From assembly GCA_002839825.1 (NCBI GenBank), contig PGYU01000001.1, positions 462,698-526,697 of the forward strand: 64,000 bases of DNA, written 5' to 3'. Every line of letters starts with the position of its first letter. Position 1 is the first letter of the stretch. The position numbers and the translations under genes are program-made. Positions 4,308 to 59,746 of this stretch are shown piece after piece. Origin of the DNA: Ignavibacteriae bacterium HGW-Ignavibacteriae-1 (GTDB taxonomy: Bacteria > Bacteroidota > Ignavibacteria > Kapaibacteriales > UBA2268). The notes under the pieces were generated by a model. The model was given only the letters and a program-made list of their open reading frames with translations, did no database searches and was not told the origin of the DNA.

Positions 4308-5654
4308 ATGAGAGTACTTATGAAAATGAAATCATTCCTTGTAGCCGCTATAGCGATATTGTTGTTATGCCAATTCACACCTTTATGGACGCAGGAAGAA
4401 ATGGAGTTGGAATTAGTCTTGGAAGTTAAGTACTCAGGTCTTTTTTCGCAAGCATTTGAACAAGTTTGCAAAAAAGGGAAATTTCTTGTTAATTCATCCG
4501 ATGGAGAACGTTATCTATATGACCTTAATACAGGTGAACTAATTTATAAAACAACAAAAGGAACTGAATCTTCCCTTGTAGTTAATGATGTTGGAGATAA
4601 GTTTTATATCCGGAACATTTCAGAAAACACATTTGAAGAATATGATATTAAAACAAAAGTTTTGATACAAAAAATTCCGCATGTAATAAACGGGTATAAA
4701 TATCCGTTAAGAATATCACCTGATAATGTCTATTTTGAATTTTACGAGCATCCTCATTCAATCGTGTTTAAAGACCTATATACGGGAACAGTGTTAGATA
4801 GCTTTAAAGTGCCAAATTCTCCAGACAACGCTACATTTCGTATGGTTGATGAAGGAGAGTTCTCTTATGATGGTAGATATTTTAAGTTCGGATTAGTAAA
4901 TCAATTCAATACTGAAGCAGGAGCGAATTGGTTTGTATATGACAGACAAGCGAAGGAAATTGTATTTTTAAGATATATTGAGCCTGCACTTGGCGGTGAA
5001 TTGTATTTGGAGTTTTACAATACAAAAAATTGGATGTTCGTTTCACATAGAATGAAATTGAATGATGATGACATAGCATATAATTATTTAAGCGAATTCG
5101 ATTTAGATGTAAGAGAATTTAAAAATCACATAAAAATAAACAAATTAGCAAATTTTACAAGTGCTAGGTTGAGATTGGATGATAAAATGTATACTTACAG
5201 ATTAATATATCCTAATGGTGATTCAACTAATGTTCAAAGGTTTTACGATTATGAAAACAAGAGAGTTATTGATTACACCCTTAAACACTGGATAAACATG
5301 TTTGATTCAAACAATATTTGGTATTGGCATGTTGATGTATTACGAAAGTATCGTTTTGATTGGACTGTAGGAGTAGAAGACGAAACAAATTTGGGTGAGC
5401 AAATACTATATCCAAATCCGGCAACGGAATATATTGAAATAGCTGTAGATATCAACCCTACGGTTAACCGTAGGGTTGATGAAATTTCAGAGATTCATAT
5501 TTTCAACACGCTCGGTGAATGTGTGATTGAATTAGCAGATGTCCAACATCTTGGAGATGTTGGACATCTACAACGCATTAATGTGTCGCATCTACCCCGT
5601 GGCGTGTACTATATCCGTATCGGCAGCCGGACGCAAATGTTTGTTAAAGTCTGA
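4308..5654 (+). CDS. Secreted protein with a C-terminal T9SS (Por_Secre_tail) sorting domain
   Basis: Signal peptide MKMKSFLVAAIAILLLCQF. The C-terminus ILYPNPATEYIEIAV...GVYYIRIGSRTQMFVKV is typical of T9SS type A CTDs. The ORF track start at 4266 is probably too early; ATGs at 4308 and 4320 are better candidates. Confidence 0.75.
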   Translation: MRVLMKMKSFLVAAIAILLLCQFTPLWTQEEMELELVLEVKYSGLFSQAFEQVCKKGKFLVNSSDGERYLYDLNTGELIYKTTKGTESSLVVNDVGDKFYIRNISENTFEEYDIKTKVLIQKIPHVINGYKYPLRISPDNVYFEFYEHPHSIVFKDLYTGTVLDSFKVPNSPDNATFRMVDEGEFSYDGRYFKFGLVNQFNTEAGANWFVYDRQAKEIVFLRYIEPALGGELYLEFYNTKNWMFVSHRMKLNDDDIAYNYLSEFDLDVREFKNHIKINKLANFTSARLRLDDKMYTYRLIYPNGDSTNVQRFYDYENKRVIDYTLKHWINMFDSNNIWYWHVDVLRKYRFDWTVGVEDETNLGEQILYPNPATEYIEIAVDINPTVNRRVDEISEIHIFNTLGECVIELADVQHLGDVGHLQRINVSHLPRGVYYIRIGSRTQMFVKV

Positions 5655-5657
5655 AAT

Positions 5658-5708
5658 ATGATTTGTTTGATTTGAATGATTTGTTTGATTTGAATGATTT
5701 GTGTGATT
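5658..5708. repeat. Tandem direct repeat, 18 bp unit atgatttgtttgatttga, about 2.8 copies
   Basis: Read directly: units at 5658-5675 and 5676-5693, with a degenerate partial copy at 5694-5708. Confidence 0.7.
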
Positions 5709-5718
5709 ACGCTTTTCT

Positions 5719-5752
5719 AACCTTCCGAAGGTTCCAAACCTTCGGAAGGTTT
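5719..5752. repeat. Twin mirror-image hairpins aaccttccgaaggtt / aaaccttcggaaggttt
   Basis: Two adjacent short stem-loops with GC-rich stems. Together they form a larger palindrome. Confidence 0.6.
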
Positions 5753-5782
5753 CGTCTATATTAACAAACTGACGGGCATTTT

Positions 5783-5866
5783 AATTCATCCGATGACTCC
5801 CTAATATTTGTCACAACTTTGATCAATTCATTTATCTTAATTCTCCAAGTCATCGGATGAATAAAT
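5783..5866. repeat. ~85 bp hairpin element, copy 2 (same 15 bp inverted repeat as 4038-4123)
   Basis: aattcatccgatgactcc ... agtcatcggatgaataaa, with a ~45 nt loop that is roughly 70-75% similar to copy 1. It lies in direct orientation relative to copy 1, on the other side of the 4308-5654 gene. Confidence 0.7.
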
Positions 5867-5925
5867 GAATTTTAGAGCTTCTTAATCACCAGAATCATAC
5901 AAATCATAGTTCAGACAAGTTTGTT

Positions 5926-13607: not shown

Positions 13608-14243
13608 TTATTTTCCAATGAGTTTAAGGAATTCATTTCTTAAATTCAAATCATCGAGTAAATAGCCTCTTAGCACAGAAGTAGTCATATATGAGTTTTC
13701 CTCGGATGAGCTGACTCCACGTGCTATCATGCAGTAATGCTTCGCATTTATCACAACTCCGAGTGCCTTTGGTTTGAGCAAATCTTCCAAATAATCAGCA
13801 ATTTGCTCTCCCATTTCTTCCTGAATCTGTCCACGTCTGGAGAACCAATTTACAATCCTGGTAAGTTTCGACAGCCCAATGATAAATTTCCCGGGTATGT
13901 ATCCAATAGCACAATTGCCTGAAATTGTTTGCCAGTGATGCGAACAAACCGACATCACCTCTATTCCCTTGCTAATAATCAAATTATTGACATGGTTTCG
14001 GTTCGGGAATACAGTCAGTTGCGGTGGCTCGGAATATCTGCCTTCGAACAACTCGTTAACATACATTTTGGCGAGTCTTTTGGGAGTATTTGTAGAATTT
14101 GGGTCATCCGATGAAATTTTCAAAATTTCAAAAACTTCTGCGAATTTTTGTTCAAGCTGACTTATCATATGATTGAGTTCAGCTTCAGTCTGCGGTTTAT
14201 TACCATTAGAGTCAAAGGCATCTGTAGTTTGCTTTATTTCCAT
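13608..14243 (-). CDS. folE: GTP cyclohydrolase I
   Basis: CSHHWQT...GNCAIGYIPG...GLSKLTRIVNWFSRRGQIQEEMGEQIA matches the FolE CEHH/GKxHIAYIP/QVQERLT region. Confidence 0.8.
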   Translation of the reverse strand: MEIKQTTDAFDSNGNKPQTEAELNHMISQLEQKFAEVFEILKISSDDPNSTNTPKRLAKMYVNELFEGRYSEPPQLTVFPNRNHVNNLIISKGIEVMSVCSHHWQTISGNCAIGYIPGKFIIGLSKLTRIVNWFSRRGQIQEEMGEQIADYLEDLLKPKALGVVINAKHYCMIARGVSSSEENSYMTTSVLRGYLLDDLNLRNEFLKLIGK

Positions 14244-14249
14244 TGTGTT

Positions 14250-14717
14250 TTATTTTAGGTCGTAAATAGGTATTTCAATATGTTCTCCGAAGTATTCAAC
14301 CCAACTGTTTTCGGATTCGAACAATCGAATTTTAAAGAGTTTTCCTGAAGTGATTTTTGGTGAAAGGATGTTCCAAAATACAACAGCAATATTTTCAGCA
14401 CTTGGAATTATGCCCTTCAAAAAAGGTACATCATAATTGAGGTGCTTGTGGTCAACGTATTCGAAGATTTCATTTTTTAGAATTTGCTTCAATTTCTTAA
14501 GGTCAATTACGTAGCCTGTACTAGGGTCCGGAATTCCGGCAACAGTTACTTCTAATGTATAATTGTGACCATGCCCCATGATATTATTGCACTTATCAAA
14601 TATTTCTTCATTTTGAGCATCTGTAAAGGTCGGATTGAATAATCTGTGTGCAGCAGAAAATTTAATCTTTTTTGTAACATAGAGCATACGAAGCCTTAAT
14701 ATTGATGAAATCGTCAT
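14250..14717 (-). CDS. queD: 6-carboxy-5,6,7,8-tetrahydropterin synthase / 6-pyruvoyl-tetrahydropterin synthase family
   Basis: KFSAAHRL ... C..x..HGHNY motif. It is adjacent to folE. The probable start is MLYVTKK (14684). Confidence 0.75.
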   Translation of the reverse strand: MTISSILRLRMLYVTKKIKFSAAHRLFNPTFTDAQNEEIFDKCNNIMGHGHNYTLEVTVAGIPDPSTGYVIDLKKLKQILKNEIFEYVDHKHLNYDVPFLKGIIPSAENIAVVFWNILSPKITSGKLFKIRLFESENSWVEYFGEHIEIPIYDLK

Positions 14718-46353: not shown

Positions 46354-46427
46354 GCCGGAGTAGCTCAGTTGGTTAGAGCATCAGAATCATAATCTGGGTG
46401 TCGGGGGTTCAACTCCCTCCTCCGGTA
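46354..46427 (+). tRNA. tRNA with CAT anticodon (tRNA-Met elongator, or tRNA-Ile2 if C34 is lysidinylated)
   Basis: Hand-folded cloverleaf: acceptor GCCGGAG/CTCCGGT (G1-U72), D-arm GCTC-AGTTGGTTA-GAGC, anticodon arm TCAGA-ATCATAA-TCTGG, T-arm GGGGG-TTCAACT-CCCTC, discriminator A. CCA is not encoded. Confidence 0.8.
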
Positions 46428-46442
46428 CAAATAGAATTAGAA

Positions 46443-46471: not shown

Positions 46472-46576
46472 GTGGAAAATTGCTAAAAATAAATTGTGTT
46501 TTCAAATAATATTGTTATTTTATGATATAAATTTAACAAATTTTACATTTTCCCATAACTATTGAGGCTGAAAATA

Positions 46577-48739
46577 ATGAAAACGCCCATCAATTCTACA
46601 TTTATGAGTTTTGCAATCGTGGTATTAGCTATCTTTGTGTTTCCATTCAATTCCCTTAAGAGCGAAAACGGTAAATTTATAAGATTCACAGGAGCGTGGC
46701 AACAAATTTTAAGTATGGCTGATCGGGGTGACTATCTACTAATAGGGACTTCCTCGGAAGGAATCATGAAATTCAACAAACAAACGGGAAAAACAGTTAA
46801 AGTAGCCGGTTCCGATTCTGTAATCAAAAATTTAAATGTTGACATGCAAGTTGACAAGAATAATAAAGTTTGGGGTCTTTCAAATTCCTCATCACTAATT
46901 GAATACAATGGAGAAGGGTTTAATATCTATAATATTTCAGATATAGATTATGGGTCTTTTGCATTTAGTTGTTTGATGATTGATGACCATGATAATAAGT
47001 GGGTTGGTACAGGCAATAAAGGTTTGTTCAAGTTTGATGGAACTCAGTGGAAAAATTATAATAAAGCTAATTCAAAGCTACTAAGTGATAATATATTATG
47101 TCTTGACAAGGATGTAAATGGTAACATTTGGATTGGTACTGATGTGGGTTTGTTTAAGTTCGACGGCACCGACTTTACCCTTTATCAAAAGGTCAATACC
47201 GGACTAATCTCGAATATAATCAAATCAATTGCAATTGATTCTAAAAATCAGGTTTGGATAGGAACTGACAGAGGTATGGTTAAATATGACGGAACTGAAT
47301 GGACAACATTCAAGGATAGTAACATAACTGTACTTGTTAATGACATTATCGAACTCTATATTGACAACAATGATAATCTTTATGTGGGTACCCGCGTTGG
47401 ATTTGCGATTTATGATCACACAAATTGGATTGAATATAATCGTTCAAATTCAGGATTGACTGATAATTTTGTGTCTGAAATCATTACGGATGCATCAGGC
47501 AATATGTGGCTTTCTGCTTATCTTGATGGTTTGATTAAATTTGATGGTACAAATTGGTCAAATTATCAATTTTTAAAACAAAATTATCAGTTTTATAGAG
47601 ATTCTCACGTTGTTGAAGATAAAAATGGAATAATATGGGTGCAAGGAACCAAAGCTATTCAAAGTTTTGATGGATATAATTGGAGAAGGTATGGTTATAC
47701 AAATTCTGATTTACCTGTAAATGTATTAGACTACTATGACCAATTATTAACCTGTATTGCAGTAGATAGTAATAATAATATTTGGGTTGGTTCATTAAAG
47801 TTCGGAGTGATAAAATTTGACGGTTCTACTTGGACAACTTACAATACTAGTAATTCAGGGCTTCAGGATAATGGTATTCGTAGCCTTCATGTTACAAAAG
47901 ATAATAAATTAATTGTCAATGCAGGTATTACGACAACTATATATGATGGTGTTTCATGGCAATCAACTAATAGACTGGCTACGAGTATGGCATTCGACAA
48001 AGCTGGTGTAATATGGAATGTTTCAACAAAACCTAATGTATTATGGTATTGGGAAAATATAGATGGCAAGGCTGTACAGGTACATTTCTATCCTCCCGTC
48101 TATCAAGACACTAATTTAGCTTTTATTGGTTTAGTGATTGATTCCGAGGATAATAAATGGATTTCATCTACTTCAGGATTACTTAAATATGATGGAACAA
48201 ATTGGACAAGATATGATTTCACTAACTTGGGTTATAATTTCCCTTACAAAGGTGTAGCAGCAATTACGATAGACAAGAATGATGAATTATGGATGTTTGT
48301 ATCATACGGGTATCTGGTACGATTTGACGGCGGAGAAAACTGGAAAGTTGATGAGACATTTATACCTGCGATGGGTGCACCGAATTACATTACGTCAATA
48401 ACAGTAGATATGAATGGCAATTTATGGGCTGGCACAAGTTGGAATGGTGTTTACGTATTCAATGAAGATGAAATTATTCTTAATCCGGCTGATGTAATCG
48501 AAACTTTTATCCAAAACGATTACAAAATCTTCCCAAATCCGGTTGAAGATTTCATTAATATTAACGGATTAGAAAGCAATAACTTCGAATACCATATCTT
48601 TGATTTGAGCATGAAACAAGTAGCACATTCATTCGGAGTTTCGAACCAACTGGATGTTTCAAGTCTTAATACCGGTATATATTACTTAGTGATTAAGGAA
48701 AAATCTAAACTACAAGCAATGAAATTTATAAAGAAGTAG
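46577..48739 (+). CDS. Beta-propeller protein with two-component-regulator propeller (Reg_prop-type) repeats and a C-terminal T9SS sorting domain
   Basis: About 12 repeats of the W.GT..GL.KFDGT.WT.Y pattern. The CTD is KIFPNPVEDFINING...GIYYLVIKEK...MKFIKK. The probable start is MKTPIN at 46577 (ORF track 46562). Confidence 0.7.
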   Translation: MKTPINSTFMSFAIVVLAIFVFPFNSLKSENGKFIRFTGAWQQILSMADRGDYLLIGTSSEGIMKFNKQTGKTVKVAGSDSVIKNLNVDMQVDKNNKVWGLSNSSSLIEYNGEGFNIYNISDIDYGSFAFSCLMIDDHDNKWVGTGNKGLFKFDGTQWKNYNKANSKLLSDNILCLDKDVNGNIWIGTDVGLFKFDGTDFTLYQKVNTGLISNIIKSIAIDSKNQVWIGTDRGMVKYDGTEWTTFKDSNITVLVNDIIELYIDNNDNLYVGTRVGFAIYDHTNWIEYNRSNSGLTDNFVSEIITDASGNMWLSAYLDGLIKFDGTNWSNYQFLKQNYQFYRDSHVVEDKNGIIWVQGTKAIQSFDGYNWRRYGYTNSDLPVNVLDYYDQLLTCIAVDSNNNIWVGSLKFGVIKFDGSTWTTYNTSNSGLQDNGIRSLHVTKDNKLIVNAGITTTIYDGVSWQSTNRLATSMAFDKAGVIWNVSTKPNVLWYWENIDGKAVQVHFYPPVYQDTNLAFIGLVIDSEDNKWISSTSGLLKYDGTNWTRYDFTNLGYNFPYKGVAAITIDKNDELWMFVSYGYLVRFDGGENWKVDETFIPAMGAPNYITSITVDMNGNLWAGTSWNGVYVFNEDEIILNPADVIETFIQNDYKIFPNPVEDFININGLESNNFEYHIFDLSMKQVAHSFGVSNQLDVSSLNTGIYYLVIKEKSKLQAMKFIKK

Positions 48740-48758
48740 TTAAAATATTTTCCAATCT

Positions 48759-49760
48759 CTATACATCCAAAGATTTTACAGCATCTTTGAGCTGCTTAAT
48801 GACTTCATCCTTTAGCTTTTTGGGTTCAATGTCAGCAATTGCATTGCACCAACGTGACAACCACGATATGAAATCGGATGAAATCGGCACCATCATTTCG
48901 ATATTTAGATTGCCCAATTTGCTTTTGCTGACTTTTTGCGAAATGTGGATATGGCGATTCTCGAAATATTTTACATATGCCTTCTTGATTACAATTTTCA
49001 CTATTTCTACATCGCCATCTATTACCGCAAATCTTTCAGTTCTGAATTTGTCATAGTCAAATTTTGGCTCTGTTTTCCTTGTGTTATAGATTTCTTCAAT
49101 GGATTTAATGTTTTGGATAGCGAAATTGGTGGACCTTTTGTGCGATGGGTTATAAGCTATAAGATAGATTGTACCCAGATAGGTATATAAAAATTGAGGG
49201 AAAATCGTATAATCTTTGACCATGTCGTCAGTCAAGCGTTCATATTTAATCTTAATCCAATTTTTCTCGTTTATGTGCTTGATGCAAAGCCTTAAGATTT
49301 CATGTTTGTTAGAGTAATCGTAAGCACCGATGTTTTGGTCACCATAGAAAGGGTCTTCCAGAAAAACTGAGCCGGGAACCATTGATTCTAACTTATTAGC
49401 CAATTCATTCAAATCTGTTTCAATAGTAGTGCCTCGGAAAGTGCTGATATACGCTTTCAAAATATAGAATGAAATCATTTCACTCTCGCGAATATTCTTG
49501 GGGCTGAAATCAATGTTGGAGTGCTTCTTAAGTTTCCAAAACGTAACCTTGCCCGATTTACGTTTATCCAAATACCCGTCATCAAGCAACACCTTCAAAT
49601 CTCGTTGGATACTCCGAATCGAAACCTCTTTACAATCTTCAATCAAATGGTCGAAAATTTCAGTAGAAGTCATATTATTATTTGATGACAAAAGTCTCAA
49701 TATTCGTAGAATTCGCCTAACTTGTTGGCTACTATCCAAAATTTTCTTGCTCATATTCAT
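48759..49760 (-). CDS. WYL-domain transcriptional regulator (N-terminal wHTH + WYL, BrxR/CapW/PafBC-like architecture)
   Basis: HTH region TSTEIFDHLIEDCKEVSIRSIQRDLKVLLDDGYL. The WYL core is in the region KIKYERLTDDMVKDYTIFPQFLYTYLGTIYLIAY. Confidence 0.65.
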   Translation of the reverse strand: MNMSKKILDSSQQVRRILRILRLLSSNNNMTSTEIFDHLIEDCKEVSIRSIQRDLKVLLDDGYLDKRKSGKVTFWKLKKHSNIDFSPKNIRESEMISFYILKAYISTFRGTTIETDLNELANKLESMVPGSVFLEDPFYGDQNIGAYDYSNKHEILRLCIKHINEKNWIKIKYERLTDDMVKDYTIFPQFLYTYLGTIYLIAYNPSHKRSTNFAIQNIKSIEEIYNTRKTEPKFDYDKFRTERFAVIDGDVEIVKIVIKKAYVKYFENRHIHISQKVSKSKLGNLNIEMMVPISSDFISWLSRWCNAIADIEPKKLKDEVIKQLKDAVKSLDV

Positions 49761-49857
49761 ACCCGATTAAATCATAGCACATTGAAAAAGCAAAAATACA
49801 GATATTTGCGATTAAACAATCAGTTTATGCAATAAAGCACGAAAAAATGATGAACAA

Positions 49858-50820
49858 ATGAAATTGTTGTCGAATTTGCTTATTTTAGTAAGATGTTCAA
49901 AATATGATTTGAGAAAAATGTCTTTCAAAAATAAAATTGCAGATTCAAACTCAGCTTTGCTCACACCTGTAAAGTTGTTTTATTACCGCTTTTTCAACAA
50001 ATACTACCAAGTAAACGATATAATTTCCCGCAGCCAAATTACCGATGACGGCAGTTTGAAAGTAACGCTGAAAAGTGGGATAATCTTAGAGTCTCCCCCA
50101 TCTCAGATTCCGGCTGAAATCAACTTCACCGAGCGTTACAACTACGGCACAAAATCAAAAATGGACAAAATCCTTGATGTCAACAAATACTACTTCCTAT
50201 ACGAAATACTCAGCGAGCTCTTCATCCACAGCGAGTACTTCACCTATTTCGACATCAACGAAGGCGACACTGTAATAGATGCCGGAGCAAACATCGGCGG
50301 ATTCACGGTCCAAGCGGCAAAAAAAGTCGGCTCCAAAGGCAAAGTAATCGCAATCGAACCCGACGAGCAAAACCGCATCACACTCCAACGAAATCTAGAC
50401 AACAACAATCTGCAAAATGTCGAAATCATACCATTAGCGCTATGGTCGGAAAAATGCACCAAAGAATTCCACATCAGCAACCGCCCTGGCGAGCACACCT
50501 TGATAGACTATGACAACGAATTATTCACCAACAAGCAAGTAGTCACAATCCACTGCGAAACATTAGACGAAATCATCGAACGACAAGGCTACGACAATGT
50601 CAGCTACCTAAAAATGGACATCGAAGGTGCAGAAATAGAAGCCATCAAAGGAGCGACAAAATTCCTCACCACCCAATCACCCAAACTACTCATCGAAGCC
50701 CTCCACGAAGTCAATGGCGAAGCAGCATTCAAATCCATAGTCCCACCCCTTCAATCCCTCGGCTACAAATTACTAAGAGAGGTGGATGGATATAGAGGCA
50801 CAATAATAGCAAGAAAATAA
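49858..50820 (+). CDS. FkbM-family SAM-dependent methyltransferase
   Basis: VIDAGANIGGFTVQAAKKVGSKGKVIAIEPDEQN is the FkbM-domain signature. From about 50040 onward the codon usage is strongly C-ending, unlike neighbouring genes. An alternative start is 49918. Confidence 0.7.
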   Translation: MKLLSNLLILVRCSKYDLRKMSFKNKIADSNSALLTPVKLFYYRFFNKYYQVNDIISRSQITDDGSLKVTLKSGIILESPPSQIPAEINFTERYNYGTKSKMDKILDVNKYYFLYEILSELFIHSEYFTYFDINEGDTVIDAGANIGGFTVQAAKKVGSKGKVIAIEPDEQNRITLQRNLDNNNLQNVEIIPLALWSEKCTKEFHISNRPGEHTLIDYDNELFTNKQVVTIHCETLDEIIERQGYDNVSYLKMDIEGAEIEAIKGATKFLTTQSPKLLIEALHEVNGEAAFKSIVPPLQSLGYKLLREVDGYRGTIIARK

Positions 50821-50897
50821 AAAAACACTTCAAATCTTTTGCTAATTGACATAATTTTCTTAAATTGGCACTAATTCATTAATCACTGGATAAAATT

Positions 50898-52160
50898 ATG
50901 AAAAATTTTCTGCTGCTCTTGATTTTGACTACTTTGATTATTTCTTGTGATAGCACTTCAGATTCTAATAATAATGATAGTCAATTTGGACGAATCAATG
51001 GTAAGGTGATTACAAAGAACCTTTATCCAATACAAGGAGCTGAAATTTATACAATTCCCCCTACTGAAGTATTGGTTTCGAAATCAAACGGAGAATTTAT
51101 TTTCGTTCAAGTGCCAATTGGATTATATAGAGTATATGCAAAAAAGGAAGGTTATTCACCAAAGTATGTTAACATTAGCATTTTGGGAAATAAAACCTCA
51201 GAAGCCACGATAGTCCTTGATAATTTTGATATTGACAATGATCCTCCAAATAAACCAATACTAATTTCTCCAACTGATGATATTACTTTAAACACACAAC
51301 CAACATTGGAGTGGAGGTGCACAGATCCGGAAAATGATATTTTGTTATATGATGTATATTTTGGTCTTTCAGCTAATAGTCTTCAAATTATCGAATCGGG
51401 TATTGATATAACTGAATATCAGCTATCCGGACTTAGTGCTAACACGAAATATTTTTGGAAAATTGGAGCTTTTGACGATTTTGGTGGTTATTCTGAAAGT
51501 GATTTGTGGAGTTTCAATTATAAAGAAATCGAGCCAACAAATGCTCTAATTTTGAATTTAAGTTTTGATAATAATGTCAACGATATGTCGAATTATGCTC
51601 ATTTTTGTCAACAAACTAACTTAACCTACACAAAAAACAGATTTGGGAATGATAATTCTGCTGCCTACCTCAATGGTTCAGCTTACGTTGAAGTTATCAA
51701 ATCTACATTCATGGATTTCACACAACCTTTTACAATTGCTTTGTGGATCAAACCGGATCCGGGCTATGGAAATACATTTGAAGGTGAAGTTGATTTAGTA
51801 AGTAGATACGGTACGACTACATCAAATATGTCAAGTTTTGCATTTTTATTAAAAAATGGTTACTTATCCTCAGAAGTATTCAAATCACAGAGTGGAAGAA
51901 GTTACTGCCCATCTGATGTTTTAATCCAAACAAATATCTGGACACACGTAACTCTTGTTTATAATGGAACGAGTCTAATATTATTTGCTAATGGCGTTGA
52001 AGTTGCCCAAAGCATAGTTCCTAAACCGGATTCATCAAATTTGAATTTATACATAGGAAAACGATCATTAAACAATAGAATCTTCAAGGGTGCAATTGAC
52101 GATGTGAAGGTTTATAACAAAGCACTAACCAAGGCAGAAATTTCGCAATTAGCAAAATAA
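50898..52160 (+). CDS. Lipoprotein with CarboxypepD_reg-like, fibronectin type III and LamG/concanavalin-A-like lectin domains
   Basis: Lipobox LIISCDS. INGKVITKN...GLYRVYAKKEGY (CarbopepD_reg). PPNKPILISPTDD...LEWRCTDPEND (FN3). The LamG tail ...GAIDDVKVYNKALTKAEISQLAK. Confidence 0.65.
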   Translation: MKNFLLLLILTTLIISCDSTSDSNNNDSQFGRINGKVITKNLYPIQGAEIYTIPPTEVLVSKSNGEFIFVQVPIGLYRVYAKKEGYSPKYVNISILGNKTSEATIVLDNFDIDNDPPNKPILISPTDDITLNTQPTLEWRCTDPENDILLYDVYFGLSANSLQIIESGIDITEYQLSGLSANTKYFWKIGAFDDFGGYSESDLWSFNYKEIEPTNALILNLSFDNNVNDMSNYAHFCQQTNLTYTKNRFGNDNSAAYLNGSAYVEVIKSTFMDFTQPFTIALWIKPDPGYGNTFEGEVDLVSRYGTTTSNMSSFAFLLKNGYLSSEVFKSQSGRSYCPSDVLIQTNIWTHVTLVYNGTSLILFANGVEVAQSIVPKPDSSNLNLYIGKRSLNNRIFKGAIDDVKVYNKALTKAEISQLAK

Positions 52161-52175
52161 TATATCGAGGCTCAT

Positions 52176-55100
52176 ATGAAAATTTTCATTTTTATCATTT
52201 TGATTTTTTTTGCTTCAATAATCCATTTGTTAAGCCAAAAAGAGACTACAAATTGGAATTTTGGTCAATATGGAGCCATTACATTCAATACTCATAATAA
52301 TGAACCTATTTTTGTCAATGGTTCAAAACTCGATTCATGGGAAGGTTGTGCTTCAATTTCAGATAAAAATGGAAATCTTTTGTTTTATACCAATGGGGTC
52401 ACCGTTTGGAACAAAAATAATATTGTGATGGATGGTGGAAGCGGTTTATTAGGACACTACTCTGCAACGCAATCATCAATAGCTTTTCGACGACCTTTAC
52501 ATGCAAATCAATATTATATTTTTACTGTTGATGCTGTAGAATCAAATAGTCGTGGGTTAAACATGTCTATTGTGGATATGAGTCAGAATGATGGTTTAGG
52601 TAAGGTCACCACCAAAAACATTAATATTCATCCTAAACCGATTGAACGGGTTTTGGCAATTCCACATGCAAATCGAAAGGACTTCTGGGTTATTGTTCAC
52701 ATATCTCAAACAACAAATTATTTAGCATATAAAGTTGATGAAAATGGAGTTGTAGGTGATCCGGTAATAAGTAATGGCATAAATACTGCCAATAGACCTA
52801 CCGGGCATACATTGAAGTCAACTATTGACGGCAAACGTATAGCATCAACTCACTCATTTGCCGGTGTCATCGAGTTGTTTGATTTTGATAATTATTCAGG
52901 TAAGATGACATTAACAAATAATTTACAACATCCATACTTCTCATGGCCCTATGGAGTTGAGTTTTCTCCAGATGGTAAATACTTATATGCTTCATTGTTT
53001 AAACCTTGTAGATTAATTCAGATGGATGTCTCAAAACAATCAGAACAAGAAATCCTTAATAGCATGATTATTTTAGCTGAGAACCAAACTGCAACATTTT
53101 ATTATGGTTCATTGCAGTTAGGAATCAATGGTAAAATCTATGTAGCTCAAGACGAAGATCAATATTTGGGCGTAATTAAAAAACCAAATGAACTTGGAAA
53201 GGACTGTGGTTTTGTTAGTAAAGGTTTGGCAATGCTGAATGGTGCATCCAGTAGATTAGGATTGCCAACATTTGTACAAAATTATATTGCACAAGTTAGT
53301 CATTGTGATCCTAAAGGCGATGAATTGGTTACCTATGGAGATTTTGAAAGCAAAGAAGTGTTCTTTTCAAGTAGTTTAAATGAAATCAGTTTAGATAATA
53401 TTAATGAATTTCAAAATCCCGGTTCATTTGCGATTACAAATGTGAATCCTATCAATCAAAATGACAGTTGTGTACAATTTGGAAAAGACAATAATTTTGT
53501 ATTTTGTCACACATTAACGGGTTTAAATGACGTAATAACGTATGAGACGACAGTCGAACCAAATTCTGAATATTTGTTTTCATTTGATTTTATCCCTGTA
53601 TCAGACAAATCATTCTCTAACCTATCTATTTTTATGAATGGCGTAGAAATTCAAAATCCCTTTTTACATGCTGAGGGTCCTTGCGTTTTAAAGAATTATG
53701 TATATGAATGGACTTCTGGCGCTAATCAAAATCTTCAAATCATAATTAGTGTCAATTCCGAATCTCCCGAAATTTTCGCTTTGGATAACATTTCATTGAG
53801 AAGCTGTGATTGTCCAACTTTACAACTTAAGAAATTGAGTCATGATCTATGTTATGGTGGAATAATTCAATTATTTGGATATAATGAAGATGTTTATTCC
53901 CATAGTTGGAAACCAAATATTGATATTGATGATATAACTGCACCAAACCCAAATGTTAAACCAAAGAAATCCACTGTTTATTCATTAACTTTGACTAACA
54001 AAATTACAGGTTGTGTTTATTATGATTCTGTTTGGGTAAATGTATTGCCAATTAAAGACATTGAAATTAGTGGGGACAATTATCTTTGCTCAGGTGATAG
54101 TACCGAAGTTTTCATTCAAGGGGATTTTGAAAATATAGAATGGTCAACAGGACAGTCTTCAAAAAGTATTATTATCAAATCGCCGGGAACCTATTTAGTA
54201 AAATGTTTTGATTCTAATGGCTGCGAATACAATGGAAGTATTGATGTATATTGGATTGATGTTCCTGATATTCAAATTATAGGACCCAATTCGGTTTGCA
54301 AAGATGAATCCTTTGAATTGGAAGTAGATTATAAAGATGCTAAACGATACTTGTGGTCGACAGGCGAAAGTACTCCCAAAATAACAAAATTAGTACCTGG
54401 TACCTATACTGTCGAAATTATATTGAGTGACGGATGTTCAACTACATTAACTAAGACCGTTAATGAAATAAGCCCTGCAAAGCTGGAACCTCAACATATT
54501 GATATAGGTGAAGTTTGCTTGCAGGAAATAAGTCAAATTGATAAAAGCATATTGAATTCGAATGATTTCAATGTTCTTATTGACAAGATTATTTTGAAAT
54601 CTGCTTTGATTGGTTTAACTCTTTCTTATGAGTCACCCTTGCCTTATAATTTAAAACCAAAAGGAAATTTTAAATTGAATTTTGAATATTCAACTATGGT
54701 TTATGACAATGTTTTAGTAGATACTTTATTAGTTATTTTAACAGAGCCATGTTATTCTGAAATTAGTATACCAATTACAGGCAAAATATCTGAAACGAAG
54801 TCAAAAGTTTGGATAGCTGATACAACTGTTATTGCCGGTGATTACATATGTATTCCAATTTATGCAACAATGTTTTGTGAAGAATTTATTACCGGTAAAT
54901 TTAAATATAGATTAATGTGTGACATGAGTAAATCTTTTTTCGAACCTGATTCAGTAGCTTCAGGGACAATGGTTGTTGATGACAAGCATCTCAGATATTA
55001 TATTATTGAAATTGAGGACACGGCGATCCTCGAAGAAAACAACAATATTGTAAATTATATTTGTGGAACTGTTTTATCCCCTGATTCATCAAAATATTCA

Positions 55101-55481
55101 GTTAATATAAGCGATTTCGAATGGTCTGATATTCAAACGGAAACTGATATAGACAATGGATTATTCGATGTTGATTATTGTGTTTATACTATCCGACAGC
55201 TAATTTCTATCAAACTTTCTTCAATTACATTAAAGCCAAATGTAACTGATGGTGCATTTGCCGCAAACATTGTTAGTTCCGAAGTTGGTAATTTCAATAT
55301 TATCATTACAAATTCGATTGGTAACGAAATATATAGAAGTTCTTGGGTCAGAAATTCTAAGTCTGAACCTGATGAAAATGAGATGTTGATTGACTTATCT
55401 GAATTTCCTTCGGGTGTTTATAACGTCATTATGATTTCACCTTGGAGTACTAACAGAGAGAAAGTGCTATTAGTTAAATAG
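52176..55481 (+). CDS. Giant T9SS cargo protein (paralog A): beta-propeller (YVTN-like) + CBM-like beta-sandwich + 3 Ig-like Cys repeats + cohesin-like domain + T9SS CTD
   Basis: Signal peptide. GVEFSPDGKYLYASLF propeller blades. WSTG[DQE][ST]T-containing ~75 aa repeats. The C-terminus FNIIITNSIGNEIYRSSW...GVYNVIMISPWSTNREKVLLVK. Confidence 0.7.
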   Translation: MKIFIFIILIFFASIIHLLSQKETTNWNFGQYGAITFNTHNNEPIFVNGSKLDSWEGCASISDKNGNLLFYTNGVTVWNKNNIVMDGGSGLLGHYSATQSSIAFRRPLHANQYYIFTVDAVESNSRGLNMSIVDMSQNDGLGKVTTKNINIHPKPIERVLAIPHANRKDFWVIVHISQTTNYLAYKVDENGVVGDPVISNGINTANRPTGHTLKSTIDGKRIASTHSFAGVIELFDFDNYSGKMTLTNNLQHPYFSWPYGVEFSPDGKYLYASLFKPCRLIQMDVSKQSEQEILNSMIILAENQTATFYYGSLQLGINGKIYVAQDEDQYLGVIKKPNELGKDCGFVSKGLAMLNGASSRLGLPTFVQNYIAQVSHCDPKGDELVTYGDFESKEVFFSSSLNEISLDNINEFQNPGSFAITNVNPINQNDSCVQFGKDNNFVFCHTLTGLNDVITYETTVEPNSEYLFSFDFIPVSDKSFSNLSIFMNGVEIQNPFLHAEGPCVLKNYVYEWTSGANQNLQIIISVNSESPEIFALDNISLRSCDCPTLQLKKLSHDLCYGGIIQLFGYNEDVYSHSWKPNIDIDDITAPNPNVKPKKSTVYSLTLTNKITGCVYYDSVWVNVLPIKDIEISGDNYLCSGDSTEVFIQGDFENIEWSTGQSSKSIIIKSPGTYLVKCFDSNGCEYNGSIDVYWIDVPDIQIIGPNSVCKDESFELEVDYKDAKRYLWSTGESTPKITKLVPGTYTVEIILSDGCSTTLTKTVNEISPAKLEPQHIDIGEVCLQEISQIDKSILNSNDFNVLIDKIILKSALIGLTLSYESPLPYNLKPKGNFKLNFEYSTMVYDNVLVDTLLVILTEPCYSEISIPITGKISETKSKVWIADTTVIAGDYICIPIYATMFCEEFITGKFKYRLMCDMSKSFFEPDSVASGTMVVDDKHLRYYIIEIEDTAILEENNNIVNYICGTVLSPDSSKYSVNISDFEWSDIQTETDIDNGLFDVDYCVYTIRQLISIKLSSITLKPNVTDGAFAANIVSSEVGNFNIIITNSIGNEIYRSSWVRNSKSEPDENEMLIDLSEFPSGVYNVIMISPWSTNREKVLLVK

Positions 55482-55606
55482 TGTGTTCTGAGCTTAAATT
55501 TGTAGAAAGATTGAATAGAATTTTGTATTCTTGAATTATATAAATTTTCTGTGATTCTTTAGAGTCACCAAATATGGAATTTTCTTAATTATGAATCGGA
55601 GTCTTT

Positions 55607-58600
55607 ATGAAAAAGCTCTTAGTTTTAATAGTGGGTCTAATAATAATACATCACTATGCTTTATGCCAAAAAGAAGCAAGTAACTGGAACTTTGGCAGAA
55701 ATGCAGCAATGACATTCAATACCCCTGATAAAGAACCTGTTTTTGTAAATGGGTCACAACTAAATTCATGGGAAGGGTGCGCAACAATATCAGATTCAGA
55801 AGGTAATTTACTATTCTATACCAACGGAGTCACTGTTTGGAATAAAAACAATGCCATTATGGATGGTGGTACAGGATTGCTTGGTGATAACTCAGCAACT
55901 CAATCTTCAGTCGCTTTTCAACATCCTACTCAGGCAAAAATGTATTATATTTTCACTGTCGGTTCAGTAGAGTCAAATACAAAAGGTTTTAATTATTCAT
56001 TTGTTGACATGAACGCAAATGGAGGATTAGGTAAAGTTATTACTAAAAATGTCAAAATTCATGATAAACCAATTGAAAGAATAGCTGTTATTCCACATGC
56101 GAACAAAAAAGCTTATTGGGTAATTGTCCATATCACAGGGACTACTGAATATTTAGCATACAAAGTTGATGAGTTTGGTGTAGCTACAGTACCGATTGTA
56201 AGTAATGGTACTCTTAAAAGTACTAAATTGACCGGACATACGCTAAAGGCATCTTTAGATGGTACAAGAATAGCCTCCACACATTCTTTTGCAAGCGTTA
56301 TCGAATTGTTTGATTTTGATGCTTTTTCAGGTAAAATGACTTTAACTCATAATCTATTGCACCCAAGTTTTACATGGCCATATGGAGTAGAATTTTCTCC
56401 GGACGGGAAACTTTTATATGCGTCTTTGTTTTTCACATGTCGTTTAGTCCAATTTGACGTTACTCTAAAAACAGCGGAACAAATATTAAATAGCATGGTA
56501 GTTTTAGGTGAAAACAAAAGCGCAACATTCTATTTTGGTACTATACAACTTGGTATAAATGGAAAAATTTATGTTGCACAAGACGACAATACGTATTTAG
56601 GGGTAATTAGTAAACCAAACCAAAAGGGAGAAGCTTGTGATTTTGTAGAGTATGGCTTTCGATTGTTATCCGGTTCTAGAAGTGGATTAGGATTACCATC
56701 TTTTGTACAGGCTTTTTTTGCTCCCAAAGAATATTGTGAACCCAAGGGAGATGACTTAATCATAAATGGAGATTTTGAAGTAAGTCCCTCCAATTTTACA
56801 TCTACATTAAGTTTGGTAGATGCTAATGCACAATTTCAAACACCTTCAACATATATTATAACAAAAGTGAATCCAATCAATACTAATGATCCATGCTCAC
56901 TCTATGGTACTATTAATAAATTCATGTTTGTACATACCAAAACTGGATTGAATGAAATAATGAAATTTGATTTGAAAGTTGAAAAGAACATAGAATATAT
57001 TCTCTCATTTGATTTTGTACCTATTGATGACAAAGTGTTTTCAAACTTAAGAATAGATATTGATGGTGAAGAAATTGCATCAGATTTTATTCATTCTGAT
57101 GGTTTGTGTCAATTAATAAATTATAAATTTACATGGAATTCTAAAGAAAAGGAAGATGTTGAATTAACATTCAAGATGATTTCATCATCCCCTGAAAAAT
57201 TTGCACTTGATAACATTTCATTTAGAAGTTGTGAATGTTCTAAAAGAGAATTTGAATCTTCAGAGCATCAAATCTGTTATGGTAAAAGTGTAAAATTAGA
57301 GGGAAATGACAATCAAAAATATATCCATAAATGGGAGCCCAATTTTTGGATTGATAATCCAAATTCACCTACACCTACAGTTTCTCCAACAAAAAGTACG
57401 ATTTACCTTTTAAAATTGACGGATAGAATAACTGGATGTGAATATTTTGATACAGTAAAGGTTGAAGTAATCCCGGCGGTTGAAATTGAAATTTTGGGAG
57501 ATAATCTTATCTGTGTGGGTGATAGTACAGAACTGTCAATTGAAGGAAATTTAAATTCTATCATTTGGAGTACGGGCGATACAACACTGAGTATTATAGT
57601 CTCAACTCCGGGTACCTATGAAGTATCAGGTATTGATTCAAATGGTTGTGAACATAAAGGACAAATTCAAGTTAAATTAATTGAATCTCCGGGTTTAGCA
57701 ATTCTCGGACCTGTATTGGTTTGTTTCGAAGAAGAATATGAATTAGAGGTTAATTTAGATGCTTTCGGATATTTATGGTCAACCGGTGATACCACTAAAA
57801 AGATAAAAAGAGTAGGTGCTGGATTTTTCACTGTCCTTGTAACAATTGAAGGTGGTTGTATTGTCGAATTATCTATTGATGTTGGTTTGAAGGAGGATGG
57901 AGAGGTTAGAATAAGAGGTCCTTTCGAGGTTTGTATTGAGGAAAATTTTGAACTTGAAGCCCTAATTTTGGCTGATAAATACATTTGGTCAACTGGTGAC
58001 TCAACAAAAATCATAAAACATAAAGGTCCCGGAGTTGTTAACTTAGAAGTCGTTACTAAAGACGGTTGTAGAAGTATAGGTTCATACGAAATTAAGTTAA
58101 AACCTGATGGTGCTCTAAATATAATTGGAAAAACCGAAGCATGTTTGAACGAGGATGTAACTTTGATGACTGATTTTGAAGGTGTAAAATATAATTGGTC
58201 AACAGGCGATACCACCAAACAGATTATTCACCGAGGTCCGGGAACTATAAGTGTCGAAGTAATAGATTCAAACGGATGCCGAAGTATTGGTTCGTTTGTA
58301 ATTGAACTTATCCCTGATGGAATTGTAGAAATTATCGGACCAAAGAGAGTTTGTATATATGAAGAGTTCGAACTGATTGCTGATATTGATGGAGAAAAGT
58401 ACATTTGGTCAACCGGTGATACCACCAAAAAGATAAAACACATTGGTCCAGGTAAAATAACTGTGGAAGTCATAACATCTGAAGGATGTGTAAGTAGAGG
58501 AGGAATTGAGATAGAATTGATTCCTGATGCCGATATAGATATTTTTGGTCCAACTTCAATTTGTGAAGGCGAAAATTCTATAATTTCCATATCCGGTAAT

Positions 58601-59746
58601 TTTCAAAAAATCACATGGAGCACCGGTGATACTACCGAAATTGTCACGATTACAAAAGGTGGTACTTACAACGTACAAGCTATTGATATTTACGGTTGTA
58701 GATGGATTGGTTCGATAAAAATAACTGAAATTCCAAAAATTCATTTTGAGGAAATGAAAATTGATTTAGGTGAATTATGTATTTTTGAAACCAATCAGTC
58801 TAATTATGAAATTGTAAATTCAAACGATTTTGCTTTTACAATCAGTAAAATAATGCTTCAAAATTCATCGAGCGGACAAATTGAACTTCAATATAATCAG
58901 TCATTGCCTTTGGTTTTAAACAATCTCCAAACTCTTGAATTCTCGTTGAAGTTCTCACCTTTAGTTTCGGCTGGTAAAATTTATGATACAATAACAGTTT
59001 TTATTTCCGAACCATGTTATACAGAATTCCGAATACCAATAACAGGAACTGTAATCAAAACGGAAACAAAGGTTTGGATAGCCGATACAACTGTTGCTGC
59101 CGGCGAATACATATGTATTCCAATTCATGCAACTATGTTTTGTGAAGAGTTCATTACAGGTGAATTCAAATATAGATTAGTGTGTGACCTGAGCAAATCT
59201 TTCTTCGAACCTGATTCAGTAGCTTCTGGGACAATGGTTGTTGATGACAAGAATCTCAGATATTATATAATTGAAATAGAGGACATCGCCATACTTGAAG
59301 AAAGTAACAATATTGTTAATTATATCTGTGGAACCGTATTATCTCCTGATTCAACAAAGTTTTCCGTTAATATAAACGATTTTGAATGGACTGGTTTTGA
59401 AACAGAAACTAAGATGGACAATGGCTTATTCGATGTGGAATATTGTGTTTATACAATCCGACAGCTAATTTATATCAAACTTACTTCAATTACTTTAAAG
59501 CCAAATGTAACGGAAGGTGCTTTTACTGCAAACGTTGTTAGTTCCGAAGTTGGAAATTTCAATATTATCATTACTAATTCTATTGGAAACGAAGTTTATA
59601 GACGTTCTTGGGTCAGAAATTCCAAGTCTGAACCTGAAGAAAATGAAATGTTGATTGACTTATCCGAATATCCATCCGGCATTTACAACGTTATTATGAT
59701 TTCGCCGTGGAGTACTAAGACGGAGAAAGTGATGTTAGTAAAATAG
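55607..59746 (+). CDS. Giant T9SS cargo protein (paralog B): same architecture with about 7-8 Ig-like Cys repeats
   Basis: The N-terminal ~380 aa and C-terminal ~240 aa are highly similar to paralog A. The tandem repeats have motif G..C.....L......Y.WSTGDTT..I....PG.Y.V.V....GC. The T9SS CTD is ...GIYNVIMISPWSTKTEKVMLVK. Confidence 0.7.
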   Translation: MKKLLVLIVGLIIIHHYALCQKEASNWNFGRNAAMTFNTPDKEPVFVNGSQLNSWEGCATISDSEGNLLFYTNGVTVWNKNNAIMDGGTGLLGDNSATQSSVAFQHPTQAKMYYIFTVGSVESNTKGFNYSFVDMNANGGLGKVITKNVKIHDKPIERIAVIPHANKKAYWVIVHITGTTEYLAYKVDEFGVATVPIVSNGTLKSTKLTGHTLKASLDGTRIASTHSFASVIELFDFDAFSGKMTLTHNLLHPSFTWPYGVEFSPDGKLLYASLFFTCRLVQFDVTLKTAEQILNSMVVLGENKSATFYFGTIQLGINGKIYVAQDDNTYLGVISKPNQKGEACDFVEYGFRLLSGSRSGLGLPSFVQAFFAPKEYCEPKGDDLIINGDFEVSPSNFTSTLSLVDANAQFQTPSTYIITKVNPINTNDPCSLYGTINKFMFVHTKTGLNEIMKFDLKVEKNIEYILSFDFVPIDDKVFSNLRIDIDGEEIASDFIHSDGLCQLINYKFTWNSKEKEDVELTFKMISSSPEKFALDNISFRSCECSKREFESSEHQICYGKSVKLEGNDNQKYIHKWEPNFWIDNPNSPTPTVSPTKSTIYLLKLTDRITGCEYFDTVKVEVIPAVEIEILGDNLICVGDSTELSIEGNLNSIIWSTGDTTLSIIVSTPGTYEVSGIDSNGCEHKGQIQVKLIESPGLAILGPVLVCFEEEYELEVNLDAFGYLWSTGDTTKKIKRVGAGFFTVLVTIEGGCIVELSIDVGLKEDGEVRIRGPFEVCIEENFELEALILADKYIWSTGDSTKIIKHKGPGVVNLEVVTKDGCRSIGSYEIKLKPDGALNIIGKTEACLNEDVTLMTDFEGVKYNWSTGDTTKQIIHRGPGTISVEVIDSNGCRSIGSFVIELIPDGIVEIIGPKRVCIYEEFELIADIDGEKYIWSTGDTTKKIKHIGPGKITVEVITSEGCVSRGGIEIELIPDADIDIFGPTSICEGENSIISISGNFQKITWSTGDTTEIVTITKGGTYNVQAIDIYGCRWIGSIKITEIPKIHFEEMKIDLGELCIFETNQSNYEIVNSNDFAFTISKIMLQNSSSGQIELQYNQSLPLVLNNLQTLEFSLKFSPLVSAGKIYDTITVFISEPCYTEFRIPITGTVIKTETKVWIADTTVAAGEYICIPIHATMFCEEFITGEFKYRLVCDLSKSFFEPDSVASGTMVVDDKNLRYYIIEIEDIAILEESNNIVNYICGTVLSPDSTKFSVNINDFEWTGFETETKMDNGLFDVEYCVYTIRQLIYIKLTSITLKPNVTEGAFTANVVSSEVGNFNIIITNSIGNEVYRRSWVRNSKSEPEENEMLIDLSEYPSGIYNVIMISPWSTKTEKVMLVK

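Follow-up and report, generated by a model that had tools for sequence, protein, structure and literature searches.

A divergent gene pair of a WYL regulator and an FkbM-family methyltransferase in Kapaibacteria: vertical inheritance and a maintained, gene-specific codon bias

Introduction

How does a single chromosomal gene come to use codons quite unlike those of every gene around it? The question is raised by an FkbM-family methyltransferase gene of Ignavibacteriae bacterium HGW-Ignavibacteriae-1, which lies head to head with the gene of a WYL-type regulator in a stretch of 64,000 nucleotides (nt) of contig PGYU01000001.1 (positions 462,698 to 526,697; hereafter the window, or W). A preliminary description of the stretch had read the unusual codons as a mark of horizontal acquisition, and had imagined a phase-regulated module for surface modification. 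Both gene families are confirmed here by matches above curated cut-offs, and the arrangement is indeed divergent, with the WYL gene on the minus strand and the methyltransferase gene on the plus strand. The pair is, however, a chromosomal, vertically inherited module, and its codon bias is gene- and clade-specific, and maintained rather than inherited from a donor.

The kinds of genes involved are already known; the unusual element is a codon bias specific to the methyltransferase gene and to its clade. In the literature searched, no paper was found that pairs "WYL" with "FkbM", nor any that joins "Kapabacteria" with "codon usage". The overall explanation that we favour, with moderate confidence, is a two-gene, vertically inherited module of Kapaibacteria type, in which an FkbM methyltransferase is controlled by a WYL regulator and carries a maintained bias linked to its transcript.

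Loci and measures

Related loci used for comparison are labelled L followed by a number, and their homologues bear the names given by the sequence sources. L001 (contig JAGXRP010000033.1 of a metagenome-assembled genome) is nearly identical to W at the locus; W, L001 and L168 form the W clade. The public record of L001 is titled Desulfobulbaceae bacterium. Its gene content, with cargo of the type IX secretion system (T9SS), and the names of its closest homologues point to Kapaibacteriaceae (Bacteroidota), and the record is probably mislabelled or mis-binned.

Codon usage was expressed as C/Y3, the third-position ratio C/(C+T). The other 44 open reading frames (ORFs) of the window served as the baseline (mean 0.336, standard deviation 0.059, maximum 0.43). 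The methyltransferase of W was aligned with 29 orthologues (30 sequences in all), and seven orthologous spacers between WYL and methyltransferase genes were aligned. As controls, 123 loci with distant FkbM homologues were each compared with their own neighbours.

Codon bias of the methyltransferase gene

The methyltransferase gene has a C/Y3 of 0.78 (z = 7.6, binomial p = 5e-33 against the 44-ORF mean), so that the contrast with its neighbours drawn in the preliminary description holds, the other ORFs averaging 0.34 and none exceeding 0.43. Over codons 66–285 there are 109 C and 16 T (0.87), as against at most 0.47 in 220-codon stretches of other genes. The shift from T to C occurs in every amino-acid family (Phe 10:0, His 5:0, Ile with ATC 17 vs ATT 1, Val with GTC 8 vs GTT 0, Gly with GGC 9 vs GGT 1) and includes synonymous first positions, where Leu TTR has become CTR. 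Purine-ending codons barely change; a slight shift from G to A brings the purine ratio A/R3 to 0.75–1.0 in the core of the gene. The first and second codon positions and the amino-acid composition are hardly altered.

The bias is confined to the methyltransferase ORF. The flanks are normal, and so are codons 1–22 (3 C, 8 T). Instead of switching at about 50040, as first described, the bias rises gradually from about 49985 and reaches a plateau from about 50100. At the level of base composition, the segment 50001-50500 has both the highest GC content (0.452) and the highest AT skew (+0.307) of any 500 nt in the window, and the sense strand of the methyltransferase gene is the only one among 45 genes in which C far exceeds G (skew +0.21, z = 4.8). 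Despite the highest GC content, its mRNA is predicted to fold more weakly than that of any other gene in the window. For about 700 nt the sense RNA contains 0.26–0.40 C and 0.11–0.2 G (in 90-nt windows), and TC occurs at 1.53 times its expected frequency.

Several simple accounts of this composition were rejected. An overlapping gene was considered, since W has no stop in frame +2 over 111 codons. The same frame contains 23 stops in L160, and its openness in W is a by-product of the missing third-position T; the antisense frames across the gene contain 13–24 stops. A mosaic or recombinant allele was dismissed on the spread of the bias along the gene in L160, and a UV-type TT-to-TC signature on the preference for C being independent of a preceding T. 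No Rfam match to a structured or known RNA was found in 48000-52000 at E<=1.

The WYL gene contains the second-highest C/Y3 stretch of the window (0.47 over 220 codons), with GC content at third positions raised to 0.42. Its third-position G rises too, a pattern unlike that of the methyltransferase gene.

Persistence of the bias among orthologues

The bias recurs, in graded form, in orthologues that are paired with a WYL gene. C/Y3 of the methyltransferase gene and the mean of its neighbours are 0.78 and 0.34 in W, 0.75 and 0.30 in L001, 0.70 and 0.32 in L168, 0.56 and 0.26 in L160, 0.57 and 0.27 in L163, 0.47 and 0.33 in L165, and 0.35 and 0.27 in L167. The composition shift is of the same type across these loci: third-position C is up, T is down and G is unchanged. 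Methyltransferase genes without a WYL partner stay near the values of their neighbours (L169 0.29, L171 and L172 0.44, L173 0.26, L002 0.28, L003 0.28). A general property of FkbM genes is rejected by the 123 control loci, in which the difference between methyltransferase and neighbours is -0.01±0.07 and at most +0.13.

Within the W clade the bias is upheld and is not decaying. Polarised third-position changes there number 9 T>C and 8 C>T, despite 128 C sites and 36 T sites; therefore the gene is at steady state and is not undergoing amelioration. Between lineages the synonymous sites are saturated, and the shared bias is thus no relic. The bias of W exceeds that of L160 and also that of the more distant L163, which suggests that it has, if anything, become stronger. 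Synonymous divergence (dS) gives no sign of a mutational hot spot or hypermutation, since it is not raised: between W and L001 it is 0.20 for the methyltransferase gene and 0.38–0.89 for eight neighbouring genes (the lowest of nine), between W and L168 it is 0.41 against 0.15–0.82, and between W and L160 it is 1.18 against 1.01 and 1.54.

Vertical inheritance of the pair

The divergent pair is also found in L160, where the methyltransferase is 92% and the WYL protein 75% identical to those of W, and in L163, L165 and L167 (65–67% and 55–57%). In every comparison the methyltransferase is the most conserved product of its neighbourhood. Relative to L160, its 92% compares with 78% for the neighbouring laminin-G-domain (LamG) protein, 75% for the WYL protein and 64% for the homologue of a large surface protein (big); relative to L169, its 66% compares with 49% for big and 46% for LamG. 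L168 shares extra genes of the window. On the left the block is anchored by a BFN nuclease gene and a tRNA-Met gene, the latter being found again in L001 (6682-6756), L168 (2411-2485) and L163 (139-213); in L163 the pair once more lies downstream of both. Immediately behind the BFN gene, the tRNA-Met gene forms the left boundary of the block of variable surface-protein genes in which the pair is embedded.

The nearest source-named homologues of the methyltransferase, among which a donor lineage was to be sought, are all Candidatus Kapabacteria or Kapaibacterium (Bacteroidota), and the family is thus one conserved in relatives. No integrase or recombinase gene and no att-like repeat of the 3' end of tRNA-Met are present in the window, and an island integrated at this tRNA gene is accordingly rejected. 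A phage or plasmid origin is likewise rejected: no phage DNA matches the locus, and viral homologues of the methyltransferase are at most 37% identical.

How, then, does the proposal of horizontal acquisition fare? It holds that the gene, or its interior, was taken up from a donor whose codons end in C and A, and that amelioration since then has been only partial. No gene of the window deviates more strongly in composition than the methyltransferase gene, and as a single, strongly deviating gene in its genome it resembles the "alien" genes of the amelioration literature; the locus lies beside a tRNA gene and among variable surface-protein genes, and in L165 a transposase fragment stands beside the WYL gene. 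However, the pair and its anchor are kept in relatives whose methyltransferases are only 65–67% identical, the identity of the methyltransferase tracks that of its neighbours and always exceeds it, and its close homologues are Kapabacterial, without the integrase, att repeat or close viral relative that mobility would leave. Synteny, conservation and taxonomic distribution are thus of the vertical type. The shift itself is also of the wrong kind: a strand-specific change from T to C with unchanged third-position G matches, by our reasoning, the average composition of no genome. Amelioration predicts a large excess of C>T and an equal decay in sister lineages, yet the changes are balanced, the bias is common to lineages with saturated synonymous sites, and W stands at 0.78 and L160 at 0.56. 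We regard acquisition from a donor as largely refuted and very improbable. More generally, horizontal transfer is not proved by a codon outlier confined to a single gene, even at z > 7; in the present case synteny, conservation and the comparison of orthologues point to vertical inheritance of the gene and to a lasting pressure on it that goes with the sense transcript.

Cause of the codon bias

Selection on the transcript, either for the translation of NNC codons or for a C-rich, G-poor, U-poor and unstructured mRNA, is the most likely cause that we can infer. It would account for a bias that is limited to the interior of the ORF, leaves the 5' end unbiased, goes with a low or normal dS and persists across lineages. 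The pattern resembles the translational bias of highly expressed genes in its preference for NNC over NNU and for A over G, in the unbiased first 20 or so codons, and in the dS that is not raised.

Ordinary codon adaptation to high expression is a possible form of such selection, yet several observations weigh against it. Methyltransferases of this class are not normally expressed at the level of ribosomal proteins, and the genes of the window that are likelier to be well expressed (ETF, sigma-70, PspA and LipA; ribosomal-protein genes are absent from the window) favour ACT, TAT and AAT and avoid CTA. The methyltransferase gene runs contrary to this gradient, with ACC, TAC, AAC and CTA. An Akashi-type test found no excess of C at conserved residues of the methyltransferase (p = 0.4–1.0), and selection for translational accuracy is rejected on this ground. 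The blanket change from T to C, first positions of Leu codons included, could be taken for a mutational signature just as readily as for adaptation to tRNAs.

A local mutation bias oriented by the transcript must be weighed, in which T>C on the sense strand would be raised within the transcription unit without any selection, for instance by deamination of template-strand adenines while single-stranded, or by antisense transcripts that start at the 3' end of the gene and predominate. All codon families share the change, Leu TTR to CTR and the normally infrequent CTA among them; this uniformity, the independence of residue conservation, the fading toward the 5' end and the slight accompanying shift from G to A all agree with such a process. 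Sense strands of vertebrate mitochondrial genes are A+C-rich in a similar way, akin to the combined G-to-A and T-to-C shift seen here. On the other hand, the asymmetry known to accompany transcription makes the coding strand richer in G+T, contrary to the present pattern. The dS of the methyltransferase gene is not raised, and is the lowest of the nine genes compared between W and L001; neither the flanks nor codons 1–22 are affected; and inspection by eye, with no pattern search run, revealed no minus-strand promoter motif of Bacteroidetes type in 50821-50897. Mutation would have to shift the ratio of T>C to C>T rates about 20-fold over some 800 bp, and we know of no bacterial mechanism that does so. 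We hold a mutational origin to be unlikely, and return to selection on the transcript.

What the transcript might be selected for is suggested by its likeness to the loading regions of the Rho terminator (rut regions), which are C-rich, G-poor and weakly folded. The sense RNA of the methyltransferase gene has these properties over about 700 nt, with TC over-represented, and its composition is that which would be expected of a Rho-loading region. Unlike a rut region, the tract is a translated ORF, and the bias also occurs where no co-directional gene follows (L163, L165, L167). A more far-reaching proposal is that the recoded, U-poor, C-rich, G-poor and structure-free mRNA is an adaptive second layer of control above the WYL switch, a reading that we consider quite improbable. 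If it were true, the message might serve as an extended platform for Rho loading, by which transcription of the methyltransferase gene and of the downstream surface-protein genes is coupled to ongoing translation. Alternatively, it might be suited to translation, or to survival, when U-ending codons or U-rich RNAs are compromised, as could result from an altered wobble modification of tRNAs or from a U-specific RNase that acts when phages attack or DNA is damaged. On this view, the differing strength of the bias in WYL-paired lineages would show how far each has progressed. If the bias has been selected for a reason beyond bulk expression, the gene would offer a clean natural example of regulation in synonymous sites.

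The methyltransferase

The methyltransferase matches PF05050 (Methyltransf_21) with 76.1 bits (cut-off 22.7) and TIGR01444 with 110.9 bits (cut-off 37.7). It aligns end to end with its 29 orthologues, and the motifs DAGANIGGF, the loop that binds S-adenosylmethionine (SAM), and KMDIEGAE are invariant or nearly so in the 30 sequences, the invariant loop residues being D121, G123, A124, N125 and G127. The AlphaFold2 (AF2) model is one compact fold (pLDDT 90.6, pTM 0.89) with alternating beta and alpha elements from residue 118, preceded by an alpha/beta N-terminal domain of about 110 residues. A frameshift or fusion at about 50040, raised as a possibility beforehand, is rejected by this end-to-end alignment and single confident fold. 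With a dN/dS of 0.03–0.04 the protein is strongly constrained.

Members of the FkbM family include FkbM of FK506 biosynthesis, RfbT of the Vibrio cholerae O-antigen and NoeI of Nod factors. The present protein shares with the family the Methyltransf_21 domain, the SAM loop, the KMDIEGAE motif and a sub-threshold similarity to RfbT. It differs in its family-specific N-terminal domain and in lying outside any polyketide or O-antigen cluster, and its match to the solved FkbM structure 2py6 reaches only 3e-7 and covers only the catalytic core. Foldseek against the PDB returned generic class I SAM (Rossmann) methyltransferases at the top (TM about 0.4). A full-length component of a defence system is rejected: of the PADLOC models only mad2 matches (7e-10), and it does so within residues 128-191, around the SAM loop.

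The WYL regulator

The minus-strand ORF is, judged from its domains, a transcription regulator with WYL and WCX parts and a putative winged helix-turn-helix (wHTH) in front of them. This assignment is made because the WYL domain is above its cut-off (PF13280, 29.7 bits against 21.8, residues 155-222), because PADLOC WYL models match at 1e-17 and 6e-15 over almost the whole length (PDLC01457 covers residues 13-254), and because a profile of 22 homologues matches DriD in register, positions 197-326 aligning with DriD 211-340 (8tp8, 7u02; the WYL-WCX part) at about 1e-11. The WCX extension is further indicated by precomputed PF25583 matches on most of the WYL homologues. At the N-terminus there are only sub-threshold helix-turn-helix matches in residues 18-80 (FUR with 18.3 bits against a cut-off of 23.1, ArsR with 17.9 against 55), and the homologue profile matches a chain of Fur at 8e-4. 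Only 22 proteins of the subfamily are detectable, which makes it a small one.

In length (about 330 residues), predicted domain order and a WYL domain above the Pfam cut-off the protein resembles DriD, PafBC, CapW and BrxR, and like other wHTH-WYL-WCX factors it is encoded beside, and divergent from, its presumed target. It differs in that its neighbours are an FkbM methyltransferase and surface-protein genes rather than a defence system or a DNA-damage regulon, and its single-sequence match to DriD chains is marginal (E about 0.01–0.04). In L164 (Logan SRR5650731) the WYL ORF at 4886-5885 is split into pieces of 172 and 166 residues, and in L163 (a JGI contig) it is intact at 4887-5885; L164 is a natural variant with a defective WYL gene.

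The divergent control region

Most methyltransferase orthologues begin with MSxKNKIA, which corresponds to the ATG at 49918. The longest ORF of W starts 20 codons upstream; this extension is closed by a stop in L160, whose methyltransferase is 92% identical. The start is placed at 49918 and not at 49858 because of these orthologue starts, the stop in L160 and the position of a -7-like box downstream of 49858. The spacer therefore measures 157 bp, and not the 97 bp given in the preliminary description.

Two opposed boxes are found in this spacer. On the minus strand TATTTTTG, the putative -7 box of the WYL gene after the Bacteroides consensus TAnnTTTG (Bacteroidetes-type), stands where such a box would be expected; read on the plus strand it is CAAAAATA, which is invariant in all seven spacers. 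The -7-like box of the methyltransferase gene, TTATTTTAGTAAGA, keeps its position in all seven. The same box forms the left arm (49880-49893) of a 14-nt inverted repeat whose right arm lies at 49921-49934. The repeat occurs in W, L001, L168 and L160, where its arms enclose both the start codon and the presumed site of transcription initiation, and it is the best candidate for an operator.

The preliminary description had pointed to 49761-49857 as the place to look for a palindromic WYL operator. The inverted repeats of the spacer mostly reflect the two opposed -7 boxes, and other candidate half-sites, TGAACA/TGTTCA, are not conserved across the seven spacers. As to phase regulation, the locus contains no simple-sequence tract, convincing invertible-promoter repeat or recombinase. 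There are two trivial two-copy tandem repeats, and the inverted repeats at the locus are at most 17 nt, imperfect and AT-rich, with one arm in conserved coding sequence.

Proposed function and regulation

In the module as we envisage it, a dimer of the WYL regulator would bind within the 157-bp spacer, where both -7 boxes lie, and would set transcription of the methyltransferase gene, and probably of its own gene, in response to a ligand of the WYL domain. WYL regulators sense single-stranded DNA (PMC11662680, PMC10853764), and by analogy with DriD, PafBC and CapW the ligand could be single-stranded DNA here as well. The methyltransferase gene heads a co-directional run of genes for large surface proteins, which are probably exported by the T9SS. 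As methyl acceptor its product may use a hydroxyl group of a glycan, a lipid or a small molecule associated with these proteins. The odd codons are a blanket change from T to C at free sites of the sense strand in the interior of the ORF, held at steady state. Control of the methyltransferase gene by the WYL protein is plausible because the pairing is conserved in a subclade, and a WYL-controlled role in modification of surface proteins or glycans is likewise plausible, given the persistent link of the methyltransferase gene with such proteins. If so, WYL-type regulators would govern not only defence and DNA-damage genes but also, in a Bacteroidota lineage that has received little study, a methyltransferase with links to T9SS surface proteins.

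Some results count against control of one gene by the other. The methyltransferase occurs without WYL in several relatives, and other WYL homologues (36–50% identity) have unrelated genes alongside and no FkbM neighbour. Since each gene is thus found alone, the pairing is limited to a clade and confounded with phylogeny. No operator palindrome common to all seven spacers was found, and the Foldseek search of the PDB gave no clue to a substrate.

The two genes might therefore be adjacent without regulation, the WYL protein controlling only itself or the surface-protein genes and the methyltransferase being a constitutive housekeeping enzyme. This would be in line with the missing common operator, and with two arrangements seen elsewhere. 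In four relatives without the WYL gene (L169, L171, L172 and L002), the methyltransferase gene is divergent instead from a Pur_DNA_glyco gene, for an alkylpurine/hypoxanthine DNA glycosylase, which is not present in the window. In L175 (847-5990), where no methyltransferase gene is present, the genes of a WYL homologue of 48% identity and of a full-length big homologue are transcribed divergently, and the WYL family may be tied primarily to big surface-protein genes. However, the head-to-head arrangement with its short spacer has survived 35% divergence of the methyltransferase and 45% divergence of the WYL protein, and the codon bias is found in WYL-paired orthologues and little elsewhere. 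Characterised WYL regulators usually control an adjacent divergent or downstream operon (PMC9122601, PMC11662680). Adjacency without regulation is thus considered improbable, and a WYL-controlled methyltransferase remains the explanation that we prefer.

Surface-protein genes and other neighbours

The proximity to large surface proteins pointed out in the preliminary description is borne out by the co-directional run 50898-59746, which the methyltransferase gene heads. Homologues of big adjoin the methyltransferase gene in eight loci (L001, L160, L169, L171, L172, L002, L163, L165), and several of the proteins encoded near by in these loci have a clear T9SS sorting domain. Taken over all loci, the persistent link is that of the methyltransferase with a surface protein, to which the WYL gene was added in one subclade. 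The features of the locus are collected in Table 1.

Table 1. Features of the WYL-methyltransferase locus, with positions in the window unless another locus is named.
Feature	Position	Strand	Basis or remark
tRNA-Met, conserved left anchor with the BFN nuclease gene	46354..46428	+	ARAGORN on window, L001, L168, L163
Predicted wHTH-WYL-WCX transcription regulator, 333 aa	48759..49760	-	Pfam WYL, PADLOC WYL models, DriD profile match
Divergent control region with both putative promoters	49761..49917	.	157 bp; alignment of seven spacers
Putative -7 box of the WYL gene, TATTTTTG on minus strand	49791..49798	-	CAAAAATA invariant in 7/7 spacers
5' extension of the longest methyltransferase ORF, probably untranslated	49858..49917	+	Orthologue starts; frame closed in L160
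Putative -7-like box of the methyltransferase gene, TTATTTTAGTAAGA	49880..49893	+	Position conserved in 7/7 spacers
FkbM-family SAM-dependent methyltransferase, 300 aa, family-specific N-terminal domain of about 110 aa	49918..50820	+	PF05050, TIGR01444, AF2
Tract of extreme synonymous T-to-C bias; sense strand C-rich, G-poor, U-poor	49985..50772	+	Codon and composition analysis
CarboxypepD_reg + Laminin_G_3 (LamG) protein, co-directional with the methyltransferase gene	50898..52160	+	Pfam; homologue after the methyltransferase gene in L160, L001, L169
big1, large protein	52176..55481	+	Sub-threshold T9SS sorting domain PF18962, 21.2 bits (cut-off 27)
big2, paralogue of big1, 1379 aa	55607..59746	+	Pfam: no family at E<=1e-5
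Pur_DNA_glyco gene	L169 5280-5900; L171 5291-5908; L172 140-757; L002 3536-4135		Divergent from the methyltransferase gene

The paralogues big1 and big2 are 54% identical overall. Identity is 40–69% over most of their length and 85–87% over the last 200 or so aligned residues, a contrast that may be due to gene conversion or to a C-terminal cassette common to both. Within big2 there are four internal repeats of 210 nt at 57764-58452. The gene is present in L168, and absent from L001 and L160.

On the other side of the pair, the gene at 46562-48739, a Reg_prop gene with a T9SS tail, is absent from L001, and in L168 it is only 60% identical, whereas the flanking BFN gene is 99% identical; it is a hypervariable or replaced insert. 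At L160 681-3422, L163 1809-4598 and L167 1600-4315 the WYL gene is adjoined by genes for Peptidase_S74/DUF5907 proteins (with a tail-fibre-like chaperone domain) and for a T9SS-tail protein, and the Reg_prop gene occupies their position in the window. The Pur_DNA_glyco and methyltransferase genes of L002 are separated by about 3 kb of masked sequence.

The window as a whole is ordinary core chromosome, with genes for OGDH (2-oxoglutarate dehydrogenase), LptD, RecR, HisRS, sigma-70, LipA, UvrA, ETF and the BFN nuclease. As background only to ideas on the decoding of NAC and NAU codons, a GTP cyclohydrolase I gene adjoins a gene for a 6-pyruvoyl-tetrahydropterin synthase (QueD-like) at 13608-14717, a pair that is compatible with synthesis of queuosine or folate precursors.

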